This document shows positions 1,494-32,086 of a DNA stretch of 64,000 nt, one piece after another. Every line of letters begins with the position of its first letter. The first letter of the stretch is position 1. The notes beneath the pieces were generated by a model. It ran no database searches. It saw only the letters and a program-made list of their open reading frames with translations, and was not told where the DNA came from. The stretch comes from an uncultured Gammaproteobacteria bacterium (GTDB taxonomy: Bacteria > Patescibacteriota > Patescibacteriia > Magasanikbacterales > UBA922): positions 7,034-71,033 of the forward strand of contig CAYSPW010000003.1 of the NCBI GenBank assembly GCA_964433095.1, given 5' to 3'. The translations under genes were made by a program, and so were the position numbers.

Positions 1494-4301
1494 ATGAGAG
1501 AATACAAACCTCGCGAGATTGAGAAAAAATGGCAGCACTATTGGGAAGAAAACCAAATTTTTAAAACTCCTACTGAAGCAGAAATTGACAACAAAATGTA
1601 CATACTGCCCCAACTGCCTTACCCATCCGGTTCCGGACTCCATGTCGGCCACGCCGAAGTATACACGGCCTGTGATATTTACGCTCGTTACCAGAGAATG
1701 ATCGGCAAGGATGTACTACAGGTAATCGGCTGGGATTCTTTCGGATTGCCGGCGGAAAACTACGCAATCAAAACAAATATACATCCGCGCGTTAGTACCG
1801 AGCAGGCGATTGATACTTTTAGAGAACAAATTAAGTTATTGGGTGTTTCGGTGGACTGGGACCGGGAAGTAAGCGCTCATCATCCTTCCTTCTATAAATG
1901 GACTCAATGGTTTTTTTTGTTGTTTTACAAGCGTGGGCTGGCTTACAGAAAAAAACAGTCGGTCAATTGGTGCGACGGCTGTAAAACCGTCTTGGCCAAT
2001 GAACAAGTGGTGGATGGACGCTGTGAACGTTGCGAAGCGGTCATCCGGCAAAGAGATATGGAGCAATGGTTTTTGAAAATTACCGCTTATGCCGATCGCT
2101 TGATTGATGATTTGGACAAAGTGGATTGGCCGGCAGAAACAATAAAAAGACAAAAAGATTGGATTGGGCGTTCGCCGGGTGCGTTGGTGAATTTTTACAT
2201 CAATGGAGATCCGGTGGAAGTCTTTAGCACCAGACCGGATACATTGTTCGGCGCCACTTATTTGATTTTGGCACCCGAACATGAATCGGTTCGCTTATTG
2301 AAGGATAAAATAGAAAATTGGAAACAGGTGTCAGAATATATAGAGCGGGCGCGATTAAAAAGCGATTTGGACCGCCAAACCGAAAAAGAAAAGACCGGAG
2401 TGGAATTGCGTGGCATTAAGGCTGATAATCCGGTCAATAACGAAAAAATACCGGTGTATATAGCGGATTATGTTTTATCCGGCTATGGAACCGGCGCCAT
2501 CATGGCCGTTCCCGCTCATGATGAAAGAGATTATGAATTTGCAAAAAAATACGATCTGCCCATAAAGCAGGTGGTGGCCGAGCAGGTTGGCGAAAAAAAA
2601 GAGCAAGGACAGTGTCGGCCCGGTTCTTATGCGGTAATGGAAAAAGATGAAAAGATTTTGGTAATCTATGATAAAAAAACAGATTTTTATCGGCTGCCGG
2701 GCGGCGGATTTGAAGAAGGTGATGATGCCGAGCAGGCTCTGAGAAGAGAGATAGCTGAAGAAACCGGCTATGTTAATTATCATGTGGGAGAGCATTTTAC
2801 CAAACTGGAGAGTTGCGGCTATTCTGATAATAACAAAGCTTACTTGCATAGATTGTTGCATGTTTATCATGTCAAATTGGAAAATGACCAAAGAGATCAA
2901 TCTCTATTGGAAGATGCACAGCGTTGGAGGCTAGAATGGATGACCTATGAACAGGTGGTAGAAGTCTTTGGTAAAGAAACAAGGGAGCTGGAGTTGATTG
3001 CTTTGGTATTGGATAAGATGACGCCATGCTATAGCGGTGAAGGAGTTTGCGTTGATTCCGGCTTTTTAGCCGGACTGCACACCGATGAAGCCAAAGAAAA
3101 AATGGTACGGTGGTTGGAAGAAAATAACTTTGGAAAAAGTCACGTTCAATACAAGCTGCGCGACTGGTCCGTTTCCAGACAGCGCTTTTGGGGAGCGCCC
3201 ATTCCCATGCTCTATGATCAAGAAGGCGAACTTCATCCGGTGCCGGAGGAAGATTTACCCGTGCTTTTACCAACGGATGTTGATTTCAAGCCTACGGGTG
3301 AATCGCCTTTAAACTGTTCGCAAGAATTTCAACAAGGGGTGGAAGAAAAGTACGGCCAAGGTTGGAGCCGGGAACCGGATACTTTGGATACTTTTATGTG
3401 TTCCAGCTGGTATTATTATCGCTATCTTGACCCACATAACGATAAATGTTTCGCCTCGCCCGAGAGCATAAAAACATGGATGCCGGTTGATTTTTATCTG
3501 GGCGGTTCGGAGCATGTTACGGGGCATTTACTCTATTCGCGATTTTTCACCAAAGTACTCTATGATTCCGGATATATTGATTTTGACGAGCCTTTTTTGA
3601 AACATCGCCATCAAGGATTGATTTTGGGAGAAGATAACAGAAAGATGAGCAAGCGCTGGGGCAACGTGATCAATCCGAGTGATGTCGTGAAAGAATTCGG
3701 AGCAGACACTACCAGAATGTACGAAATGTTCATGGGTCCTTTGGAAGACGATAAGCCTTGGGACATGAACGGTGTTAAAGGAGTGAGAAGATTTTTGGAT
3801 AAAGTTTGGAGATTGCAGTCAAAAGTGGCGAATCAATCAAGCGCTAATGATAAGGTATTACACAAAACCATCAAAAAAGTTACCACCGACATTGAGGATA
3901 TGCGTTTCAATACCGCCATTGCGTCCATGATGGAGCTGGTTAATTTCTGGCAGAAGAAGGAACAATTATCTAAGAATGATTTTTCTTTGTTTGTAAAAAT
4001 TCTTTCTCCTTTCGCGCCTCACATATGTGCGGAAATTTGGCAGATTTTGGGCCATGATGAGCAGCCGGCGTTTCAAAGTTGGCCAGCATATGACGCGGAA
4101 TTGATAAAAGAAGACACCATTACTTTGGTGGTACAGATAAACGGCAAAGTGAGGTCAAATCTGTCAGTACCGGCCGACATCGGGGAAGATGAAGCCAGGC
4201 GAGTGGCGCTTGCCGATGAAAAAACGCGCCAATGGCTTGCGGATAAAGAACCGAAAAAAATTATTTACGTAAAAGACAAATTAATCAATATCGTGACGTA
4301 A
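1494..4301 (+). CDS. leuS: Leucyl-tRNA synthetase with an inserted Nudix-like domain
   Basis: Class I HIGH-type motif HVGHAEVY, KMSKR (KMSKS); CP1 editing-domain blocks TRPDTLFGATY and GTGAIMAVPAHDERDYEFA; RDWSVSRQRFWGAPIPM. About 120 extra residues between the editing domain and the RDW block carry a Nudix box. Confidence 0.9.
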   Translation: MREYKPREIEKKWQHYWEENQIFKTPTEAEIDNKMYILPQLPYPSGSGLHVGHAEVYTACDIYARYQRMIGKDVLQVIGWDSFGLPAENYAIKTNIHPRVSTEQAIDTFREQIKLLGVSVDWDREVSAHHPSFYKWTQWFFLLFYKRGLAYRKKQSVNWCDGCKTVLANEQVVDGRCERCEAVIRQRDMEQWFLKITAYADRLIDDLDKVDWPAETIKRQKDWIGRSPGALVNFYINGDPVEVFSTRPDTLFGATYLILAPEHESVRLLKDKIENWKQVSEYIERARLKSDLDRQTEKEKTGVELRGIKADNPVNNEKIPVYIADYVLSGYGTGAIMAVPAHDERDYEFAKKYDLPIKQVVAEQVGEKKEQGQCRPGSYAVMEKDEKILVIYDKKTDFYRLPGGGFEEGDDAEQALRREIAEETGYVNYHVGEHFTKLESCGYSDNNKAYLHRLLHVYHVKLENDQRDQSLLEDAQRWRLEWMTYEQVVEVFGKETRELELIALVLDKMTPCYSGEGVCVDSGFLAGLHTDEAKEKMVRWLEENNFGKSHVQYKLRDWSVSRQRFWGAPIPMLYDQEGELHPVPEEDLPVLLPTDVDFKPTGESPLNCSQEFQQGVEEKYGQGWSREPDTLDTFMCSSWYYYRYLDPHNDKCFASPESIKTWMPVDFYLGGSEHVTGHLLYSRFFTKVLYDSGYIDFDEPFLKHRHQGLILGEDNRKMSKRWGNVINPSDVVKEFGADTTRMYEMFMGPLEDDKPWDMNGVKGVRRFLDKVWRLQSKVANQSSANDKVLHKTIKKVTTDIEDMRFNTAIASMMELVNFWQKKEQLSKNDFSLFVKILSPFAPHICAEIWQILGHDEQPAFQSWPAYDAELIKEDTITLVVQINGKVRSNLSVPADIGEDEARRVALADEKTRQWLADKEPKKIIYVKDKLINIVT

Positions 4302-4304
4302 AAA

Positions 4305-5867
4305 ATGTTTAGATTTTTGCTCCGCTCCAAGAGCCGGCGCTTTTACTGTTATTGCCTGGCATTTCTGAGTGGAATCGCGCTAATATCAATTATCGACCGC
4401 AAGGTCGATTTTTTTATTTTATATCTTTTGTATTTTTTCTTGATCACGGCTATATTGATATTTTGGAATAATGACAAAGTGGTGTTTGTGGTGTTTTGTT
4501 TTCTGGCATTGGTTTCGGGCATCGTCAGATATCTGCTTCCTTTCCCGCCCGAATCGCCGCAGTTTGTGGCAAATTACAACGGACAAAGCAAACAAATCGG
4601 CGGATATATCTGCGCCGAGCCCGATATCAGGCTGGATGGCGCGCGCTACATTCTAAAAGTGGAAAAGCTGGAAGGGGCGGAGAAGATCAAAGGCAAAGTA
4701 TATTTAAAATACGATCTGTACCCGCGCTTTGATTATGGTGATTATCTGCGTGTCAGTTGTTCGCTGCGCCAGCCGGAGATAATTGAATCAATAAACGGCA
4801 GAGATTTTCGCTATGACATGTATTTGGCGCGCTACGGCGTTTTCAGTATTTGCCGTGCCGAACAAGTTAAAAAATATGGCAATAAAGGTAATGTACTGTT
4901 AAAGAAGATCTTTGCTTTGAAAAAGAAAGTGGCGGAAAAAGTAAACAAACTGTGGCATGAGCCACATGCTAGCTTTATGGCCGGCCTGCTTTATGGCTAT
5001 CGCGGCGGTCTGGGTTCCTTGAACGAACTTTTTAATATTACCGGCGTCACTCACATTGTGGCCATATCAGGCTACAATATCAGCATAATCGCGGCCATTT
5101 TCATATCCATTAGCGTCAATTTATATATCCCGAAAAAGAAAGCATTTCCATTGGTGGCTATTGGTATTATCATCTTTGTGGTATTCGCGGGCGCAAGCGC
5201 CTCGGTTATGCGCGCCGGCATAATGGGAATTATGGTGCTGTTTGTCAAGCACCTGGGCACTATCAGCAGGGTTGGAAACGTGATGATTTTAACTTGCGTT
5301 TTAATGTGCCTGTTTAATCCTTTTGTTTTAATATGGGATGCCGGATTTCAGTTGTCTTTTATTTCTACTCTGGGTTTGATATATCTCACGCCTTTGTTGG
5401 AAAGACGGGTTAAGTTTATTCCCGAATTTTTTTCTTTGAGAGAATCGTTTATCAGCACTATCTCGGCGATTATCGCCACTCTGCCTTTGATATTGTTTCA
5501 GTTCGGCCGGCTGTCCCTCGTAGCTCCATTGGTCAATGTCTTGATACTCTGGATTTTGCCGCTGCTTATGGCTTTGGGATTTTTTGCCGTGTTGGCCAGT
5601 TATGTTTTTTTGCCTTTGGCGCAGGTGCTGGCTTGGACAGCCTGGCTCGGCCTCAGCTATATCATTATCATTGTAAAATGGTTCGCGTCACTTAATTACG
5701 CCGCTATAAACATATTGATACCGGCCTACGTTATGATGTTATGCTACGCGGTTATGACATACAGCGTGTACAGAGCTCATAAAAAAGAACAACCATTTTA
5801 TTCCATAATCAGTAAAGAAAAAAGTAGTGAAAAAAAGGATATTAATTATATAAAAAAAGTTAAATAA
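4305..5867 (+). CDS. ComEC/Rec2-family DNA internalisation channel protein (DUF4131 + competence domain), N-terminal gene of a split ComEC
   Basis: Multi-pass membrane protein with an N-terminal OB-like DUF4131 region and the competence-domain pattern typical of ComEC; no MBL domain in this ORF. Confidence 0.65.
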   Translation: MFRFLLRSKSRRFYCYCLAFLSGIALISIIDRKVDFFILYLLYFFLITAILIFWNNDKVVFVVFCFLALVSGIVRYLLPFPPESPQFVANYNGQSKQIGGYICAEPDIRLDGARYILKVEKLEGAEKIKGKVYLKYDLYPRFDYGDYLRVSCSLRQPEIIESINGRDFRYDMYLARYGVFSICRAEQVKKYGNKGNVLLKKIFALKKKVAEKVNKLWHEPHASFMAGLLYGYRGGLGSLNELFNITGVTHIVAISGYNISIIAAIFISISVNLYIPKKKAFPLVAIGIIIFVVFAGASASVMRAGIMGIMVLFVKHLGTISRVGNVMILTCVLMCLFNPFVLIWDAGFQLSFISTLGLIYLTPLLERRVKFIPEFFSLRESFISTISAIIATLPLILFQFGRLSLVAPLVNVLILWILPLLMALGFFAVLASYVFLPLAQVLAWTAWLGLSYIIIIVKWFASLNYAAINILIPAYVMMLCYAVMTYSVYRAHKKEQPFYSIISKEKSSEKKDINYIKKVK

Positions 5868-5878
5868 AAAAGTATTTT

Positions 5879-6817
5879 ATGAAGAATATAGACAAGGTGA
5901 TGTTGTTGCTATTTGCGTTGTTGTTATGCGTGGTGGGAATGGTATTTTGGCTGAAAAAGGATGAAAGCGGATTAAGCCCGGACGCGAGCGGATTAATGAT
6001 AAATCCAGAAGAAGAAAACGTTCAATACATACGCGTTACTTTTCTGGATGTGGGTCAAGGTGATGCTACGTTTATAGAATTCACCAATGGCGAACAAATG
6101 CTGGTGGATTGCGCCATAGATGCCAGAATCATTGAGGCTTTGGGCAGGGTGATGCCGTATTACGACCATGATCTGGATTATCTGCTGATCACTCATCCGG
6201 ATAGCGATCATTACGGCGGTTGCGCCGAGGTGTTGGAGCGATTTGAAGTTAAAAATATTATCTATAGCGGCGTGCAAAAAAGCGATGATGGTTGGCAGGA
6301 TTTGTGGTCCAAAGTAGAAATGGAGCCGGCCGATTATTACCAGATCGATGCCGAAGATTTTTGGCGGATAAGCAGCTCAACAATTCATTTTTTGTATCCT
6401 GATCATTCTTTGGTGAAAAATCCGAATATTTTGAGCATTGAAAAAGAAGTAAGCGCCAATAATATGTCAGTGATATTTAAGCTCAGTTTTGGAGAAAATA
6501 ATCTGTTGATGATGGGCGACGCGGAGGAGGAGTTGGAGGAATATTTACTGGCCACTTACGCGGATCAGTTGGACGCGGAAATACTGAAAGTGGCACATCA
6601 TGGATCAGGCAGCTCTTCCATTGTTGATTTTTTAAATGTGGTTTCACCTGATTATGCTGTGATTTCTTGCGGATTTGATAATCGGTTCGGACATCCTTCA
6701 AGACGGGTACTCAAAAGGCTGGAAAGAGCCGGGTCGGAGATTTGGAGGACTGATCTAAAAGGTGATATAATAGCAACGATATACTTAAATAAGGTGATTG
6801 TTGAATACAAAAAATAA
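5879..6817 (+). CDS. ComEC-type metallo-beta-lactamase domain protein (separate gene)
   Basis: N-terminal TM helix, then MBL-fold motifs HPDSDHYGG, GDAEEE, VAHHGS, as in the ComEC C-terminal nuclease domain. Confidence 0.7.
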   Translation: MKNIDKVMLLLFALLLCVVGMVFWLKKDESGLSPDASGLMINPEEENVQYIRVTFLDVGQGDATFIEFTNGEQMLVDCAIDARIIEALGRVMPYYDHDLDYLLITHPDSDHYGGCAEVLERFEVKNIIYSGVQKSDDGWQDLWSKVEMEPADYYQIDAEDFWRISSSTIHFLYPDHSLVKNPNILSIEKEVSANNMSVIFKLSFGENNLLMMGDAEEELEEYLLATYADQLDAEILKVAHHGSGSSSIVDFLNVVSPDYAVISCGFDNRFGHPSRRVLKRLERAGSEIWRTDLKGDIIATIYLNKVIVEYKK

Positions 6818-26317: not shown

Positions 26318-26740
26318 ATGCGCGATGGAGCAGGAATCTTCATCAGTGCCACCATCATTTTCCGCGGTAAAGATCCGGAAAACTGGAGGGTGGATGAAAG
26401 CATGATTGATCGTCTGATTGATCACGCGGCGCTTGGAAGAAGGGTTTTTATAGTCTTCTACCATGATGATTATGAGTTTGGCAAACGTGACGAGAGTGAA
26501 ATTTTGTCTATTATAAGATCCGCATTTTATGAGGGATGTGGCATAGAAATAAAGTTTACCATCATGTTTATCGCTTCACTGCTGGATCCGGCTCCGTTCT
26601 GGGAGAAGGCCCGCTGCCATGGAATTGATATGTCTCGTTCAGTGCTTGTCGCCGAAAGTGAGCAAGGAAAGAAGCTTGGCGACATCATTGAAATTGGATA
26701 TTTCAATTATCCTGATGATTTTTTGCTCTTTATGTACTAG
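26318..26740 (+). CDS. Hypothetical protein (140 aa)
   Basis: Strong SD AAAGGAGG 6 nt upstream; no recognisable motif. Confidence 0.4.
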   Translation: MRDGAGIFISATIIFRGKDPENWRVDESMIDRLIDHAALGRRVFIVFYHDDYEFGKRDESEILSIIRSAFYEGCGIEIKFTIMFIASLLDPAPFWEKARCHGIDMSRSVLVAESEQGKKLGDIIEIGYFNYPDDFLLFMY

Positions 26741-26774: not shown

Positions 26775-26802
26775 GGCGGTAAAATTTAATCCGCCTTTTT
26801 TT
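26775..26802 (+). terminator. Putative terminator (GGCGG/CCGCC hairpin + T7)
   Basis: GGCGG-taaaatttaat-CCGCC followed by TTTTTTT, about 35 nt after the stop of the 26318 ORF. Confidence 0.4.
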
Positions 26803-26950
26803 ATTTACTGTATAGTTACCCTTAGGTGGTAAGACTTTGCTAAACTAGGGGTTACAAAGGGTAACCATTAACTTTAGTAAAGTCATATGAATAATAATCA
26901 ATCTGCTCCAGAGAACAATTTTAGAGCAAAAAAATAAACCGGAAGAGGCA

Positions 26951-27133
26951 GTGTTGATGGCGCGGATGAGAGTACCCGATCGTATTTGCGCGGTTCCCGG
27001 TGAAATGAGTCTATTGTCGATTTTTGTTCAATATTATGGAGAACCGGAATTTGTGACAAAAGTCAGTCGTGGTTCATTTTGGCCATCGCCAAAAGTGGAT
27101 TCGGCTGTTTTTAAAGATAGATGCATTAAATAA
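26951..27133 (+). pseudogene. Remnant of 16S rRNA dimethyltransferase KsgA/RsmA (C-terminal fragment only)
   Basis: AVPGEMSLLSIFVQYYGEPEFVTKVSRGSFWPSPKVDSAVF aligns with KsgA A.[41 protein letters not shown]; no N-terminal SAM-binding half is present upstream. Confidence 0.5.
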
Positions 27134-27457
27134 TTTATGAGTTTTGATTGTTTTTTCAGCTAATAAACAGTGTTTGTTGTTTTACCTCAAAAATCATCGG
27201 TTAAATCAGCGCATGGACGTTTTTCTTCCATTCTTCTCTACTTTTGAGACTAAAAGTAGCAAAAGTTTCGGGGGTGACAAAACTCGCCCCCTCCATTTAT
27301 GCTAACTATACTTCTATTACCAAGGCTGGTGGTGTCAAACAGTTGCCACCCCCAGAACCCCCTTGTTACCTTTGCCAATTTTATTTTTTTAGCCTGCCTA
27401 TCGGATAAATTCAAAACCACCGATTATTTTGCCGGTAGTTGATTGTTCCTTTTATAT

Positions 27458-27919
27458 TTAAAATTCCAAATCCCAAGTATCGGAACCCTCATCACATGTT
27501 AGGGTTATTTTTTTCGGCCAGGTTTGCTTAGGGTACTGTCCATTGTTTTTGTCTAGAAAAATTTCATTTTGTGAGAAGTCACTATTGTCTGTGATTTTTA
27601 TTTTCATGTTTTTTTCAAAAGTGTTGCTGCCTAGTGGTTTTTTAAGACCACCTAAAAAACCACTATTTTGTTGAATATTTTTTATTTCAGTATTGTGTTC
27701 ATCAAGATTAACTGAACACCCGTGCAGATCTTCGCCAATATTTACAAACTCAAGTCCCCATGATTGACGTTTTCCTAACTCCAAAAAAGAGCTATAACTC
27801 ATTTGTACAGAATTGAGGTTGTCGCCAAACTTAGAAAGTTCTGACTTTTTTTTAGATCCGCATCCACTAAGGATTATTATAAATGAAAGCATGGCGGTGA
27901 ATAAAAGTATTTTTTTCAT
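27458..27919 (-). CDS. Lipoprotein (153 aa), AT-rich
   Basis: MKKILLFTAMLSFIIILSGCGS signal peptide with lipobox LSGC. Start moved to ATG at 27919 because the longer ORF extension runs through a terminator hairpin. Confidence 0.5.
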   Translation of the reverse strand: MKKILLFTAMLSFIIILSGCGSKKKSELSKFGDNLNSVQMSYSSFLELGKRQSWGLEFVNIGEDLHGCSVNLDEHNTEIKNIQQNSGFLGGLKKPLGSNTFEKNMKIKITDNSDFSQNEIFLDKNNGQYPKQTWPKKITLTCDEGSDTWDLEF

Positions 27920-27953
27920 ACAAATATATTTAAGAATATTAACTATTATATTT

Positions 27954-27999
27954 AAAAAAGGGCGATTAGTAAAATTAATTAGCAATCGCCCGGGTTTTT
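27954..27999. terminator. Bidirectional rho-independent terminator
   Basis: A6-GGGCGATT-16 nt loop-AATCGCCC-GGGTTTTT; perfect 8-bp stem flanked by an A-run and a T-run; sits between the two minus-strand lipoprotein genes. Confidence 0.45.
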
Positions 28000-28003
28000 C
28001 CAA

Positions 28004-28696
28004 CTACCGGCAGCAGTTGTAGCAAGACTGCCAGGTTTGGTAGGAACAAGAGAGGCCCATAAAGTCTGCCCATAGATCCCCTACGGAGAAGTCGTGGCAG
28101 TACTCGGTCCAGTTCAGGATGTCGCAGATTTCTTTGGCATAGCCAAGCAAGATCGTGCCATAGATCGAGGTACCGCAGTTTCGGCGCAGCTCACAGGACG
28201 CATAGCAGTGATTCAGGGGGTCATAATAGCGCAAAGCTCTTCGCACAACCCTTTGCACACAAACCGGATTTGTCAGGGCCTGTGTGTCCGTGGCCAACTC
28301 ACCGGTTTCTTCGTTGTCCGTTACTTCGAAGCCTTGGATCGGCTCGAACTCCTCCAAGTTGATGTGGGTCCAGCCTTGGAACCGGATGGCTGTGACCGCG
28401 ATGAGGCTTTCACCGATGTAGACTTCGGTATGGACAAAAGCGTCCGGATCCAAAGCTATTTCTTCGCTGAGCTTAAAGGTAAAGATACCCTGCTCACCGG
28501 TGACAGACTCATACTGGTAGTCACTGTTCTGGATTTTCACGGTGGCGCCTTCAATCGGTACGCCGTTGGCTTTGACTTGTCCGGCCACAACGTAGTAGGT
28601 GGACACACCCTCTTCTTCGAGTCCGGTTTCTCCACAGCCGACCAAGAAGCCTACGATGAAGAGTAGCGACAGGATGATTGACACACAGGTTTTCAT
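28004..28696 (-). CDS. Lipoprotein with CarbopepD_reg-like domain and C-terminal Cys-rich domain (GC-rich gene)
   Basis: Signal peptide with lipobox LVGCGE; VAGQVKANGVPIEGATVKIQNSDYQYESVTGEQGIFTF resembles the carboxypeptidase regulatory-like domain; C-terminal 90 aa with about 11 Cys. G+C is visibly much higher than the surrounding sequence. Confidence 0.5.
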   Translation of the reverse strand: MKTCVSIILSLLFIVGFLVGCGETGLEEEGVSTYYVVAGQVKANGVPIEGATVKIQNSDYQYESVTGEQGIFTFKLSEEIALDPDAFVHTEVYIGESLIAVTAIRFQGWTHINLEEFEPIQGFEVTDNEETGELATDTQALTNPVCVQRVVRRALRYYDPLNHCYASCELRRNCGTSIYGTILLGYAKEICDILNWTEYCHDFSVGDLWADFMGLSCSYQTWQSCYNCCR

Positions 28697-28951
28697 TTCT
28701 ACCTCCTCGAGTTGGTGGCCTTTTTACCCACCCTCCCTTTGGGTGAAGCAAGAGGCCTTTTTTAATGAACAAGTTAATTTTAACTTTTTTCAGTTCATGG
28801 AAAATTAAAAAGAATATAAAATTCATATAAATTTTTTCTAATTTAAATTTTTATCCACATAAAATAGTTTTAAAACCAGTCGGAATTTGATAGAATTAGT
28901 TAAAATATGGAAAAAAATTATTGTACAATTTTATCACATGATGAGTTAGTG

Positions 28952-28980
28952 GACCGCTCATAATTGAGTGGTCTTTTTTT
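28952..28980 (+). promoter_or_regulatory. Terminator-like hairpin in the leader of the UPRT-like gene (possible attenuator)
   Basis: GACCGCTCA-taat-TGAGTGGTC (9-bp stem, one G.U) followed by T7, about 55 nt upstream of the start codon. An alternative ATGAG/CTCAT pairing overlaps the 5-prime stem arm. Confidence 0.3.
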
Positions 28981-29037
28981 AAGAGTTCTTTTTTTGAAAA
29001 TATAATCGGAACAAATAAGACATAGAAGGAGGTGGTG

Positions 29038-29937
29038 ATGCAAAAAGTAAGAAGCGGATTGTGGTGTCGCCAGATCGGCGATGCCACTATTCACGTCATG
29101 GAGACGGCAGACAGCCTTAGGCTGGCGGGTAGCCGTCACCTTATCGGGGCTCGCAAGCGCGAGTTGATGAAGAGCGTGGTGGCCGGATTCTTTAAAGAGT
29201 TCGCTCACTTTTTTCGCAGAGCAGTTTTCAGCTGGGTGCTAATCGAGCGCGGCGGGCGATTCGTCGCCCCGACCGTGCTGGAGATGGAAGCCTGGTGGGG
29301 CAAGCGCGGTCCGATTACCCCCATCGAGATGAAACGTGTGCAGGATAAGAGTAAAGAAAGTGGCTGGGGCGGTCGTTTTTTGTGGGGCTTGGGAGATCTA
29401 TTCAAGCGGCCGGAACCTACGTGGGTAGTGGGGGAGACATGCCTGGCGAGCGGCACCACCTTGCATACCCTGGTATCGGTCGCCTGTGACCATGGGCGGC
29501 AGCCGAATCATCTGGTGGTGGTGTGTCCAATTGTCGGCTCTTATGGCCTGCGGCGTCTGTTGGGATTGTGCCAACAGAAGGGAATCAAGTTGACCGTGTT
29601 TACCACCGGCATCTGGTGGGTGAACGAGGAAGGGTATGAATCCACGTTGCCGTATACCGATTTCGTGTTGCGGCGAGGACCGGTTGAAGACGATGACCTC
29701 TACTTTGTAACTCCGGCCAGCGTGACCCGCTACCGCATCAATTACGGTGATAAGCCCGTCTGCGTGGTCGGCGACGCCGGCGACTCCATGGCGGTTGGCG
29801 ATGATGGCAGAGAGGATATGCGCGCCCAGTGCAATTACATGAGGGATACCATTACCGGATTTGAGCGTTTGGGCCTTGATTCGTACCGGCTTTTGTCGGC
29901 CTGGCCGATTGATTTTCTCAAGTCGGCCGTGGCCTAG
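29038..29937 (+). CDS. Uracil phosphoribosyltransferase-family (UPRT-like type I PRTase) protein, GC-rich gene
   Basis: LIERGG (cf. UPRT ILRAG), PRPP-binding loop VVGETCLASGTTL (cf. DPMLATGGS), and C-terminal VVGDAGDSMAVGDDG (cf. UPRT GLGDAGDR); 300 aa with extra N-terminal and internal segments. SD GGAGG 5 nt before the ATG at 29038. Confidence 0.5.
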   Translation: MQKVRSGLWCRQIGDATIHVMETADSLRLAGSRHLIGARKRELMKSVVAGFFKEFAHFFRRAVFSWVLIERGGRFVAPTVLEMEAWWGKRGPITPIEMKRVQDKSKESGWGGRFLWGLGDLFKRPEPTWVVGETCLASGTTLHTLVSVACDHGRQPNHLVVVCPIVGSYGLRRLLGLCQQKGIKLTVFTTGIWWVNEEGYESTLPYTDFVLRRGPVEDDDLYFVTPASVTRYRINYGDKPVCVVGDAGDSMAVGDDGREDMRAQCNYMRDTITGFERLGLDSYRLLSAWPIDFLKSAVA

Positions 29938-29942
29938 TGCTT

Positions 29943-29983
29943 GCCCGCTCATCATTTTGCAAAGTGGATGAGCGGGCTTTTTT
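29943..29983 (+). terminator. Rho-independent terminator
   Basis: Perfect 11-bp stem GCCCGCTCATC / GATGAGCGGGC with a 13-nt loop, followed by TTTTTT. Confidence 0.65.
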
Positions 29984-30011
29984 AATTGTTGTCTATTGTT
30001 TACAAATGGTG

Positions 30012-30040
30012 TTGACTGACAAAAAAATTTCATATACAAT
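30012..30040 (+). promoter_or_regulatory. Sigma70-like promoter for secD (TTGACT-N17-TACAAT)
   Basis: TTGACT 30012-30017, 17-nt spacer, TACAAT 30035-30040; ATG at 30056. Confidence 0.45.
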
Positions 30041-30055
30041 ACTGTCCAGTTTAAT

Positions 30056-32086
30056 ATGGCCAATAAAACTCAACAATCCAATACCCGTTCCAAAGTGCGC
30101 TGGGGCATAGTGGGAGTGCTGGCGCTTTTTTTGATTGCCGGTTTTTTTGACGCTCCAGCTTTGGCAAATAAATTGATAGATTCTGTAAATCAAACCGTAT
30201 CTCTGGGCCTGCCTCGCGTTCCGGAAAAGGATTTTAATCTGGGGCTTGATTTGCAGGGCGGAGCACATCTGATTTACCAGGCCGATATATCAGGGATTGA
30301 GGCGAACGAGCGAGGCGTAGCCGTGGAAGGAGTGCGAGATGTGATTGAAAGGCGAGTAAACGCGATCGGGGTTTCCGAGCCTAATGTTCAGACTACCAAA
30401 GTAAGTGGAGAATACCGCATTATCGTGGAGCTGCCCGGAATTAGTGATACTAATAATGCCATAAACATGATCGGCGAAACTCCAATATTGGAATTCAAAG
30501 AAGAAAATAATCAGCCGCAAAGAGAATTGACCGAGGTGGAAGAGCAAGAAATAGTGCAATACAACATGATGGCCACGCAAAGACTGGGTGAAGCCGTAGA
30601 AAAAATAAAATCCGGAGCGGATTTCGGATCCGTAGTCAGAGAATATTCCGAAGATGAACTGAGTAAAAACAACGGGGGGTATTTGGGATATATTGATAAA
30701 TTTTCACCTTATCCGGCTCTTTTCAGCTGGGCCGAAAATGCGCAAGAGGGGGAGATGGGGGAATTTATTCAGAGCGTGGACGGCATTAATATAGTTAAAA
30801 GAGGTCAAGAGAGAGACGGACAATTACAAGTGGAGTCCAGTCATATTTTGATCTGCTATATAGGAGCTCAGTATTGTGAAGAAGAAAATTTATCCAAAGA
30901 AGAAGCGTTTTTAAAAGCACAATCGATTTTTAATCTAGTGAACGCGGATAATTTCTCCGAATTGGCCGAAGAAAATTCCACCGACGCGGGGTCGGCGGCA
31001 AACGGAGGTTATCTGGGATTTGTAAATAAAGGAATGCTGGTTCCGGAAGTGGACGCGCCTTTGTTTAACGCCGAAGTGGGACAAATAATCGGTCCGATTG
31101 AATCACCGTTTGGCTATCATGTCATATACAAGCAAAGCGAATCCATTGGCAAGGAATATGAAATTTGGAGGTTATTGATCAAAACAAAATCAGCTGAAGA
31201 CATTTTACCCCCGGACGATCCGTGGAAATCAACCGGATTGTCAGGCAAGCAATTAAGCAAAGCCGAAGTGGTTACCGATCCGCAAACCGGAGCAGTGCAG
31301 GTATCGTTAATTTTTGATGGCGAAGGCAAGGATTTGTTCAGGGAAATAACCGAACGTAATTTGAATAAGCCGGTGGCAATCTTTTTGGACGGCGTGCCGA
31401 TCAGTATTCCGACCGTGAACAGTATAATTCCTGACGGCCGGGCCGTAATTCAGGGCAATTTCAACCTCAAGGAAGCGCAGTTGCTGGCACAAAGACTTAA
31501 CGCCGGCGCTCTGCCGGTCCCGGTTGAATTGATCTCTCAACAAAGTGTTGGAGCCAGTTTGGGGGCCGAATCTTTGCAGAAAAGCTTGAAAGCCGGCATC
31601 GCCGGGTTGATCGTGATAATGATTTTTATGCTGATTTATTACCGCTTGCCCGGATTGGTTTCGGTGATAGCTTTGTGTTTATACATTGCTTTGGCCTTGG
31701 CTATTTTCAAATTAATAGGAGTGACTCTCACTTTGGCCGGCATCGCCGGGTTAATACTTTCCATTGGCATGGCCGTGGACGCCAACGTGCTCATATTTGA
31801 GAGATTAAAAGAGGAGTTAAAACAAGGCAAAAGCTTGAGAACCGCGGTTGAGGAAGGCTTTTTGCGAGCTTGGACTTCAATTCGCGACGGTAATATTTCC
31901 ACATTGATTACTTGTGTTTTGTTGATTTGGTTCGGCTCCAGTTTTGTGCAGGGCTTCGCGGTCACTTTGGCGATCGGTATTTTGACTAGCATGTTTTCCG
32001 CCATTACGGTCACCAGAGTGATCTTGCGTTTCGTGGTACCGTGGTTTGGAAGCGGCAAGAGCCGATTGTTTTTGGGATCAAAATAA
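30056..32086 (+). CDS. secD: Protein-export membrane protein SecD with two inserted parvulin (PpiC-type PPIase) domains
   Basis: SecD N-terminal TM and P1 blocks (LGLDLQGGAHLIY, RVNAIGVSEPNV, IIVELPG) and C-terminal TM bundle (LGAESLQKS...GIAG). Between them are two PpiC-like repeats: the first degenerate, the second canonical (SHILI...ANGGYLGFVNKGMLVPEVDAPLF...GPIESPFGYHVIYK). Confidence 0.85.
   Translation: MANKTQQSNTRSKVRWGIVGVLALFLIAGFFDAPALANKLIDSVNQTVSLGLPRVPEKDFNLGLDLQGGAHLIYQADISGIEANERGVAVEGVRDVIERRVNAIGVSEPNVQTTKVSGEYRIIVELPGISDTNNAINMIGETPILEFKEENNQPQRELTEVEEQEIVQYNMMATQRLGEAVEKIKSGADFGSVVREYSEDELSKNNGGYLGYIDKFSPYPALFSWAENAQEGEMGEFIQSVDGINIVKRGQERDGQLQVESSHILICYIGAQYCEEENLSKEEAFLKAQSIFNLVNADNFSELAEENSTDAGSAANGGYLGFVNKGMLVPEVDAPLFNAEVGQIIGPIESPFGYHVIYKQSESIGKEYEIWRLLIKTKSAEDILPPDDPWKSTGLSGKQLSKAEVVTDPQTGAVQVSLIFDGEGKDLFREITERNLNKPVAIFLDGVPISIPTVNSIIPDGRAVIQGNFNLKEAQLLAQRLNAGALPVPVELISQQSVGASLGAESLQKSLKAGIAGLIVIMIFMLIYYRLPGLVSVIALCLYIALALAIFKLIGVTLTLAGIAGLILSIGMAVDANVLIFERLKEELKQGKSLRTAVEEGFLRAWTSIRDGNISTLITCVLLIWFGSSFVQGFAVTLAIGILTSMFSAITVTRVILRFVVPWFGSGKSRLFLGSK

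Follow-up and report, generated by a model that had tools for sequence, protein, structure and literature searches.

A GC-rich patch beside secDF in a patescibacterial genome: two probably unrelated genes, one of them from a family of phosphoribosyltransferase-like genes with a GC excess over its hosts

Here we describe a patch rich in guanine plus cytosine (GC) at positions 28004-29937 of a 64,000-nucleotide stretch of contig CAYSPW010000003.1 (hereafter the window), which comes from an uncultured bacterium of the patescibacterial order Magasanikbacterales. The patch holds two divergently oriented genes: gene 1 encodes a lipoprotein, and gene 2 a protein that is predicted to adopt a phosphoribosyltransferase (PRTase) fold and is referred to below, with its relatives, as PRT-like. 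A first-pass annotation had taken the two for a single island acquired from a high-GC donor. On balance, we favour a different reading, in which the patch consists of two unrelated genes with different histories and is not a recent two-gene import from such a donor. In our preferred, if moderately held, interpretation the high GC content of gene 2 is a trait of its gene family and no indication of recent import.

The compositional anomaly is pronounced. The rise in GC in both genes, previously estimated by eye, was computed and lies 3.9-5.5 standard deviations above the 54 other open reading frames (ORFs) of the window. GC is 0.419 for the window as a whole (standard deviation of 700-bp segments, 0.034) and reaches its maximum of 0.587 in the 700-bp segment at 29101; all top segments lie within 27901-29751, and values above about 0.50 are confined to 27951-29451. 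Gene 1 has a GC of 0.528 (z 3.9) and a third-codon-position GC (GC3) of 0.667 (z 4.5), and gene 2 values of 0.572 (z 5.5) and 0.683 (z 4.9), compared with a mean GC of 0.42 and a mean GC3 of 0.448 (standard deviation 0.048, maximum 0.575) in the 54 reference ORFs. The largest tetranucleotide distances, in 900-bp segments, all fall inside 26801-29401, so that the patch is an outlier in both of the analyses that had been proposed as checks, and its statistics are not uniform with those of its surroundings. GC skew is positive throughout the region. The layout described in the first-pass annotation was likewise borne out. The terminators on both sides fold far more stably than their shuffles (-16.5 kcal/mol and z -3.77, none of 200 shuffles being as stable, 3' of gene 1; -22.9 kcal/mol, z -4.82, 3' of gene 2), each being followed by a run of six uridines, and the AT-rich spacer between the divergent genes measures 341 bp, with a GC of 0.243 in 28750-29049.

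A search for relatives of gene 2 among 5.8 billion proteins returned a single one beyond the protein itself, 60% identical and encoded in a Candidatus Magasanikbacteria metagenome-assembled genome (MAG). This locus (L001; loci that carry family members are numbered in this way below) comes from the nearest sequenced relative and is the only one available for a comparison of syntenic sites. Its gene order is that of the window: secA is followed by a gene for a 139-aa protein, a variable gene on the minus strand, the PRT-like gene, secD and secF. The two DNAs are 68% identical without a break from 28962, which lies inside the gene 2 leader hairpin, to 34615, a block that takes in the PRT-like gene together with secD and secF. 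Between the PRT-like proteins, identity is 60%, a value to be set beside 80% for secA, 77% for secD, 60% for dnaG, 59% for sod and 37% for p140, the small protein encoded 3' of secA. Because gene 2 occupies the same secA-secDF site in L001, inside unbroken orthologous DNA, we read it as having stood between secA and secDF since before the split from this relative, and not as a recent acquisition. The orthologue in L001 is itself GC-rich, with a GC of 0.478 against 0.360 for its host and a GC3 of 0.467 against about 0.32. At four-fold degenerate sites of conserved residues, the fraction of identical bases between the two copies is 0.29-0.35, compared with 0.22-0.24 at random. These sites are thus near saturation, and a signature imported before the split should, by this approximate argument, have largely decayed.

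These observations bear directly on the proposal that both genes belong to one island, recently acquired from a high-GC donor and not yet ameliorated, which we consider improbable. Such an event would fit the strong deviation of the patch at all three codon positions and in tetranucleotides, the terminators on both sides, and the location of gene 1 in a segment that is missing from the relative. Gene 2, however, belongs to the continuous 68%-identity block and is thus older than the split, since which its synonymous sites have become nearly saturated, and genes 1 and 2 are not found together elsewhere. A presence/absence comparison with a sister genome, suggested as a check and here made with L001 only, separates the two genes: gene 2 is present, orthologous and syntenic, while L001 lacks gene 1 and the segment at about 26800-28800. 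Nor did homologue searches reveal the supposed donor. None is visible in 15 billion proteins, and the family is tiny: an exhaustive HMMER search over 1.84 billion cluster representatives gave 17 clusters, only 3 of them at E<=1e-10, and all members that bear a name are Patescibacteria. A search of genome contigs returned only the known relative, a search of metagenome contigs with the family alignment found no further close relatives, and a scan of viral contigs for relatives of gene 2 found none. Furthermore, no convincing flanking direct repeats were found, the window has no tRNA gene or other Rfam match, and no integrase or other recombinase ORF lies between secA and secD. Finally, the GC excess recurs in 10 lineages besides that of the window, and atypical GC content alone is no proof of recent horizontal transfer. 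A lateral origin of gene 1 alone is plausible.

The excess can be followed through the family, whose members were located on contigs of 13 lineages (L009 represents the organism already covered by L007 and is excluded from the count). The difference in GC between gene and locus is +0.155 in the window, +0.118 in L001, +0.119 in L003, +0.162 in L007, +0.137 in L010, +0.106 in L011, +0.141 in L013, +0.127 in L015, +0.082 in L017, +0.079 in L019 and +0.071 in L016, with L020 (+0.016) and L018 (+0.005) as the two lineages that lack the offset. It thus amounts to +0.07 to +0.16 in 11 of the 13 and is negative in none. Gene GC follows host GC (r = 0.75 across the 11 lineages compared), the offset being roughly constant. 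All three codon positions take part in the shift, which also reaches the protein, where G, R, V, W and C become more frequent at the expense of K, I, E, N and Q; the shift looks mutational, conversion- or ancestry-driven, rather than due to codon selection alone. L020 has the only GC-richer host seen (GC 0.50) and carries a compositionally native member of a different subgroup, which indicates that native copies of the family exist in GC-richer Patescibacteria. We note separately that two small ORFs without a family, unrelated to each other, are also GC-rich relative to their own contigs (L011 10807-11181, GC 0.55; L013 11687-12043, GC 0.50); as candidates for hidden structured RNAs or relatives of gene 1 they were set aside, there being no Rfam match and no similarity.

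Evidence of how such a composition might be maintained comes from three close relatives, L003, L015 and L017, whose DUF6938 proteins are 90-92% identical, whose EamA proteins are 91-92% identical and whose flanking DNA is 80-84% identical. In these loci the 120 nucleotides 5' of the PRT-like gene are 71-85% identical, yet the PRT-like proteins share only 25-32%. The boundaries are sharp. In blastn comparisons, homology between L003 and L017 stops at L003 position 5358 (the ATG is at 5355) and restarts at 6519 (the next ATG is at 6521); between L003 and L015 it stops 18 nucleotides 5' of the ATG and restarts at 6520; and between L015 and L017 it stops 19 nucleotides 5' of the ATG and restarts 8 nucleotides past the stop codon. 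The allele classes also cross lineages, the L003 allele being 59-62% identical to that of L007 when the DUF6938 proteins of the same pair are only 70% identical. In comparisons among L003, L007, L011 and L013, DUF6938 identity stays within 65-70% throughout; identity between the PRT-like proteins takes one of two levels, about 60% or about 25%. As judged from these alignments, the pattern points to allelic replacement by recombination in conserved flanks, from a pool of deeply divergent alleles. The first-pass annotation had suggested horizontal movement, which thus holds for the family, in the form of cassette swapping in these three loci, and is not shown for the genome analysed here. As a side observation, the L017 cassette includes an additional GC-rich ORF of 82 aa (3090-3338).

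We infer that a pool with its own, higher GC is the most economical explanation of the composition. The GC excess would then arise because members are drawn from a set of genes exchanged among Patescibacteria by homologous replacement, and one of two causes could keep the GC of the pool high: GC-richer reservoir lineages, of which L020 would be an example, or GC-biased gene conversion at a recombination-prone locus. GC-biased gene conversion has been argued to act in bacteria (PMC4450053). Several points weigh against this reading. Taken alone, the pair formed by the window and L001 leaves an old, still-ameliorating import possible, and the sole GC-richer host seen carries another subgroup of the family. 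In addition, published effects of GC-biased conversion in bacteria are not known to come near 15-25 GC3 points, and the 15-27 GC3 points seen here exceed what would be expected of this process. A literature search on PRTases and GC content in Patescibacteria found nothing.

An alternative explanation is that selection on the nucleic acid of gene 2 itself keeps the excess in place, be it through rare GC-ending codons that throttle expression, through mRNA stability or through the avoidance of AT-rich targets. The survival of the offset in both the window and L001 despite near-saturated synonymous sites, and the roughly constant distance at which gene GC tracks host GC, agree with this idea, and the conserved leader hairpin described below suggests tight expression control. 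Selection at the level of codons does not, however, predict the accompanying shift at codon positions 1 and 2 and in amino-acid use. L018 and L020 lack the offset altogether, and the unrelated gene 1 shows a similar excess. We therefore regard this explanation as rather unlikely.

A technical origin of the patch, as an assembly chimera or contamination, has a negligible probability in our view, its sole support being the sharpness of the compositional boundaries. These boundaries fall on functional signals, namely terminators, ribosome-binding sites and a conserved leader; an independent MAG shows the same arrangement with a GC-rich orthologue; and GC-rich members lie inside AT-rich contigs in many independent assemblies, one of them (P0023) on 11 contigs. 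Since independent assemblies share the arrangement, mis-assembly of gene 2 is very unlikely.

The protein encoded by gene 2 matched no Pfam, NCBIfam, PADLOC or PHROG model even at E<=1, and across 18 family members the Pfam family UPRTase (PF14681) reached at best E 5e-4, which is under its 27-bit cut-off. Its affinities emerged from structure prediction and profile comparison. An AlphaFold2 (AF2) model built from six family members is of moderate confidence (pLDDT 69, pTM 0.69). Searched against the PDB with Foldseek, it ranked uracil phosphoribosyltransferases (UPRTs) at the top (1xtt, 3g6w, 1i5e and 5e38; E 8.5e-6 to 2.5e-5, TMt 0.52-0.56, probability 1.00), followed by hypoxanthine-guanine phosphoribosyltransferases. 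A family profile compared with the PDB matched the PRTase-fold protein 1wd5 (E 6.7e-5) and the Sulfolobus UPRT 1vst (E 0.011), both over the loop that binds phosphoribosyl pyrophosphate (PRPP), and hhalign against a four-sequence UPRT alignment, for which the E. coli Upp sequence is identical to PDB 2ehj, gave E 2e-4 with a probability of 46%, again over the PRPP loop only. This loop reads VVGETCLASGTT (residues 130-141). In the family it takes the form of an acidic residue followed by C-x-A-[SG]-G-x-[ST], in which A137 and G139 are invariant and the acidic residue always precedes them. Invariant or near-invariant across the family are G72, R100, A137, G139, G199, T207-D208, C242 and G245-D246.

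We read gene 2, from its sequence and model, as a protein with a predicted type I PRTase fold and with UPRT as its nearest known relative, and not as a demonstrable member of the UPRT family. The earlier description as a UPRT-like PRTase with extra segments holds with regard to the fold, the PRPP-loop motif and the extra segments; the other landmarks that it cited, LIERGG and GDAGD (the latter within VGDAGDS), are present in the protein but lie outside the profile alignment. Several of the findings count against an assignment to UPRT-like catalysis. The similarity to UPRT is restricted to the PRPP loop, which is common to all type I PRTases, and no Pfam or NCBIfam model recognises the window protein. 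Two candidate counterparts of the C-terminal uracil-binding motif GLGDAGDR of UPRT, LPYTD (204-208) and VGDAGDS (244-250), are not aligned by hhalign, and these putative active-site loops form the low-confidence part of the AF2 model. The arginine of the UPRT 'RAG' motif (ILRAG) has a counterpart in the RGG of the window protein; it is not conserved across the family, being replaced in about 7 of the 18 members. We also noted an antisense ORF of 221 aa (29398-30063, minus strand) that overlaps both gene 2 and the terminator 3' of it. High GC is its probable cause: the sense frame rarely uses TTA, CTA and TCA codons, and few antisense stops result.

With regard to function, gene 2 most likely encodes a PRPP-dependent PRTase for a pyrimidine-like base. 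It would transfer the phosphoribosyl group of PRPP to such a base and thereby perform salvage in an organism probably unable to make nucleotides. This assignment is made because of the gene contexts of L018 and L020 and because bacteria of the Candidate Phyla Radiation are often without nucleotide synthesis (PMC7304191). In L018 (323-5029) the PRT-like gene is part of an ABC-importer operon: it follows a permease gene and a gene for an NMT1-type binding protein and precedes genes for an ABC ATPase and an IF-2B-family isomerase, and in L020 (1526-3042) a dCTP-deaminase-family gene starts 6 nucleotides past the PRT-like stop codon. Two considerations weigh on the other side: the members that show these salvage-type contexts share only about 20% identity with the window protein, and hypervariability is unexpected for a housekeeping salvage enzyme. 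Other members stand 5' of a glycolipid-synthase-like DUF6938 gene. As candidate partners, the DUF6938, 7TM-transglutaminase and ATP-grasp neighbours were set aside, none of them being present in the window or L001; their adjacency may be only conserved gene order. A literature search on DUF6938 found nothing.

The hypervariability could also be read as the mark of an antiphage or anti-host conflict effector that depletes or modifies nucleotides and diversifies under an arms race, which would account for both the variable sequence and the atypical composition. In line with this, alleles only 25-32% identical lie between flanks about 91% identical, with sharp boundaries and with allele classes distributed across lineages; catalytic motifs are conserved in an otherwise free-running sequence; and two family members match Pfam PRTase-CE, weakly (E 0.021). 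The first-pass annotation had raised a similar alternative, a mobile toxin or defence cargo. It found no backing in the searches: gene 2 has no PADLOC match at E<=1 and no PHROG match, no phage, plasmid or viral-contig homologues were recovered, and typical defence partner genes are lacking. The neighbours in the window are sec genes, some members stand in transporter or dCTP-deaminase contexts, and gene 2 evolves no faster between the window and L001 than dnaG or sod. It is the cassette-like hypervariability in a related clade that keeps a conflict role possible, and we judge that role unlikely, though not to be dismissed.

The region upstream of gene 2 contains several elements that recur in its relatives (Table 1). 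The spacer is kept in L001 from about 28847 onward. It includes a perfect DnaA box, TTATCCACA, one of only two in the 64-kb window, which is also kept in L001. Perfect boxes lie on the coding strand 108-120 nucleotides 5' of the PRT-like ATG in L003, L015 and L017, and the loci, about 179 kb in all, contain 11 perfect boxes, 5 of which occur at this upstream position, against a background of 0.031 per kb per strand. The positions (28851-28859 in the window, 4650 in L001, 5243 in L003, 5881 in L015 and 1853 in L017) cover five genomes and two protein subgroups. A replication origin in the spacer was considered and rejected, as there is a single perfect DnaA box and no GC-skew switch; the only one-mismatch box nearby sits inside gene 1. 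Directly 3' of the box, a site whose promoter function we infer from its sequence has its TGnTAGnAT element and -35 block kept in L001. A second promoter-like site, which matches the consensus at 10 of 12 positions, is poorly conserved there. GGAGG ribosome-binding sites precede both gene 1 and gene 2, and ATG 29038 is the likely start of gene 2, because it follows GAAGGAGG by 5 nucleotides.

Between the two promoter-like sites of gene 2 lies a leader hairpin, which is kept in L001 with an altered 5' arm; hairpin-plus-T-run elements are found 28-65 nucleotides 5' of the ATG in eight family lineages. Its role may be that of an attenuator or of a stabiliser of the 5' end, or it may terminate a short transcript (about 75 nucleotides, starting near 28903), and in loci with an upstream gene on the same strand it could be the terminator of that gene. 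A leader motif, GTTCWTT, occurs within 100 nucleotides 5' of the ATG in 8 of 12 loci (background 0.28 per kb). Besides the window, it is present in L001, L003, L007, L015, L016, L017 and L019, 20-53 nucleotides 5' of the ATG, often within a short imperfect palindrome such as AAAGTTCTTT or TGAACGTTCA. Transcription of gene 2 would thus start beside the conserved DnaA box and pass the conserved leader hairpin, an arrangement that suggests an influence of DnaA and of the leader element on transcription, and a coupling to replication.

A PRTase fold combined with a conserved leader invites the further possibility that gene 2 encodes a non-catalytic regulator like PyrR or PurR, which senses PRPP or a nucleotide and acts on its own leader hairpin. 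The terminator-like hairpin and the GTTCWTT motif, both conserved in family leaders, are compatible with this. Nevertheless, Rfam gave no match above noise to a known RNA family or riboswitch in the leader, no helix-turn-helix or known RNA-binding motif was found in the protein, the hairpin may in some loci be the terminator of the upstream gene, and a variable protein under a conserved leader argues against a specific contact between the two. Such a regulator seems to us highly improbable.

Gene 1 presents a different case. The protein starts with MKTCVSIILSLLFIVGFLVG-C21, a lipobox read by eye that corresponds to LTSG-C in its homologue, and contains 12 cysteines: Cys4 in the signal peptide, the lipobox Cys21 and 10 in the C-terminal domain (146-229). 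A Pfam match to CarboxypepD_reg (PF13620) at residues 37-75 (E 6.2e-5, 23.7 bits) is under the 32.3-bit cut-off, and a model of the beta-sandwich (pLDDT 60-74) gives fold matches to transthyretin-like and carboxypeptidase-regulatory-like domains at E 4e-4 to 4e-2. The lipoprotein call of the first-pass annotation is thus borne out; its carboxypeptidase-regulatory-like sandwich is plausible from the fold matches, the Pfam match being sub-threshold, and its count of about 11 C-terminal cysteines becomes 10. For the cysteine-rich domain, a serum-amyloid-A-like reading was rejected, as hhalign produced no alignment and the isolated domain had no Pfam match at E<=10, and so was a phospholipase-A2-like reading of its 'CHD' motif, which had no PDB or Pfam support in a domain with pLDDT below 50. 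Among 5.8 billion proteins the only homologue is P0004, 56% identical overall and about 85% in the C-terminal domain, on a contig of 804 bp that is itself GC-rich. Gene 1 is absent from L001, where its slot is held by a different, 184-aa, cysteine-containing membrane protein of low GC.

More broadly, a variable segment of about 2 kb (about 26800-28800) is missing from L001. Gene 1 is most plausibly a strain-variable surface lipoprotein, in which the beta-sandwich would form a spacer and a helical, disulfide-rich domain the head; it was probably gained laterally, and nothing ties it functionally to gene 2. The same segment contains a fragment of rsmA/ksgA, apparently a pseudogene in decay, within some 700 bp between the p140 and lipoprotein genes that otherwise hold no coding sequence, and a second, unrelated lipoprotein gene without a homologue among the loci compared. 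The conserved hypothetical protein of 140 aa encoded 3' of secA (26318-26740, plus strand; 3558-3977 in L001) has no family match. We also observed a GC-rich hairpin (28717-28766, GGCCU...AGGCC, -22 kcal/mol) in the 5' untranslated region of gene 1, directly 5' of the ribosome-binding site, with a z of only -1.5; read on the plus strand, the hairpin precedes a T6 run.

Table 1 Coordinates of the patch genes, their regulatory elements and neighbours in the window, and of the replaced cassettes in three related loci
Feature	Position	Strand	Basis or remarks
rsmA/ksgA (rRNA adenine dimethylase) fragment	26951-27133	+	Pfam RrnaAD 32.2 bits (cut-off 24), profile positions 132-186 of 263
Second lipoprotein gene, 153 aa, lipobox LSGC	27458-27919	-	GC 0.32, lowest of the window ORFs; adjoins gene 1
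Intrinsic terminator 3' of gene 1	27950-28003	-	RNA fold; stem GGGCGAUUG...UAAUCGCCC, then U6
Gene 1, 230-aa lipoprotein, lipobox LVG-C21	28004-28696	-	Signal peptide, beta-sandwich about 34-113, Cys-rich helical C-terminal domain
AT-rich divergent spacer with regulatory elements of both genes	28697-29037		
Perfect DnaA box TTATCCACA	28851-28859	+	Directly 5' of the gene 2 promoter-like site
Promoter-like site: TTTAAA, 16-nt spacer, extended -10 (TG-A-TAGAAT; TGATAGAAT)	28869-28896	+	Consensus scan
Gene 2 leader hairpin GGACCGCUCA-UAAU-UGAGUGGUCU, then U7	28951-28981	+	10-bp stem
GTTCTTT, copy of the GTTCWTT leader motif	28985-28991	+	Motif recurs in family leaders
Second promoter-like site: TTAAGA, 16-nt spacer, TATAAT	28979-29006	+	Consensus scan; 3' of the hairpin
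Gene 2 ribosome-binding site GAAGGAGG	29025-29032	+	Read from sequence
Gene 2, 299-aa cytoplasmic PRTase-like protein nearest UPRT (predicted)	29038-29937	+	Fold and PRPP-loop motif
Intrinsic terminator 3' of gene 2	29943-29983	+	RNA fold, then U6
Replaced PRT-like cassette in L003	5338-6519		
Replaced PRT-like cassette in L015	5983-6928		
Replaced PRT-like cassette in L017	1965-3345		

Patescibacteria depend on scavenged nucleotides, and an unannotated, Patescibacteria-only family with a predicted PRTase fold is a candidate for a novel salvage or nucleotide-modifying step. The family unites a GC excess that almost all of its lineages show over AT-rich hosts, the replacement of the ORF as a cassette from start to stop, and a conserved DnaA box and leader motif. 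It may thus serve as a test case for whether GC-biased conversion or another locus-specific force shapes the composition of bacterial genes, for the workings of hypervariable loci in ultra-small symbionts, and for the control of nucleotide supply by DnaA in Patescibacteria. More speculatively, and with odds that we put well below even, the genes could represent an undescribed hypervariable locus of Patescibacteria. In it, start-to-stop cassettes with one and the same enzyme fold would be swapped under a conserved DnaA-box promoter and leader, would be raised by 10-16 GC points above the genome through a locus-specific process (GC-biased conversion or targeted mutagenesis) and would encode a nucleotide or nucleobase enzyme engaged in an arms race with phages or hosts, the window gene being its 'sec-locus' version.

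Compared with known systems, gene 1 resembles CarboxypepD_reg/transthyretin-like lipoproteins, its sandwich matching the SusC N-terminal extension, the teneurin carboxypeptidase-like domain and carboxypeptidase D domain II; it differs in its 85-residue C-terminal domain with 10 cysteines, which has no family or structure match, and in having a single homologue. PyrR acts on a leader terminator. With PyrR and PurR gene 2 has in common the predicted PRTase fold and, as a lead only, a conserved leader hairpin, but it shows no detectable sequence relationship, no PyrR binding-loop motif, no Rfam match and no DNA-binding domain. TT1426 of Thermus thermophilus (1wd5), an uncharacterised PRTase-fold protein, gave the best PDB profile match, which extends from the PRPP loop through the next helix and strand; this match covers only about 60 residues, and structural similarity to it is below that to UPRT (Foldseek rank 33).

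UPRT (Upp, PF14681; 1xtt, 1i5e, 2ehj, 5e38) is the best structural match to gene 2. The gene 2 loop E-T-C-L-A-S-G-T-T parallels D-P-M-L-A-T-G-G-S of UPRT and, by eye, the order of secondary-structure elements appears to agree, 'ERGG' stands where UPRT has 'LRAG', and 'VNEEGY....P.TD' resembles 'LNEHGYIIPGLGD', with the later 'VGDAGDS' apparently corresponding as well. Identity to UPRT is, however, only 10-14%, gene 2 has about 60 extra N-terminal residues (a three-stranded sheet and a helix) and runs about 90 residues past the UPRT end, and its family is hypervariable, whereas Upp is well conserved. Finally, the family resembles the variable-gene cassettes of surface-antigen and defence hot spots, in that the PRT-like ORF is swapped between conserved flanks with boundaries at start and stop, allele classes cross lineages and composition is atypical. 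It differs from them in that all PRT-like alleles belong to one family and one fold, with no recombinase genes or att sites, in that the window and L001 form a pair without a swap, and in that the PRT-like cassette is GC-rich, whereas the known classical examples of variable-gene cassettes are AT-rich.

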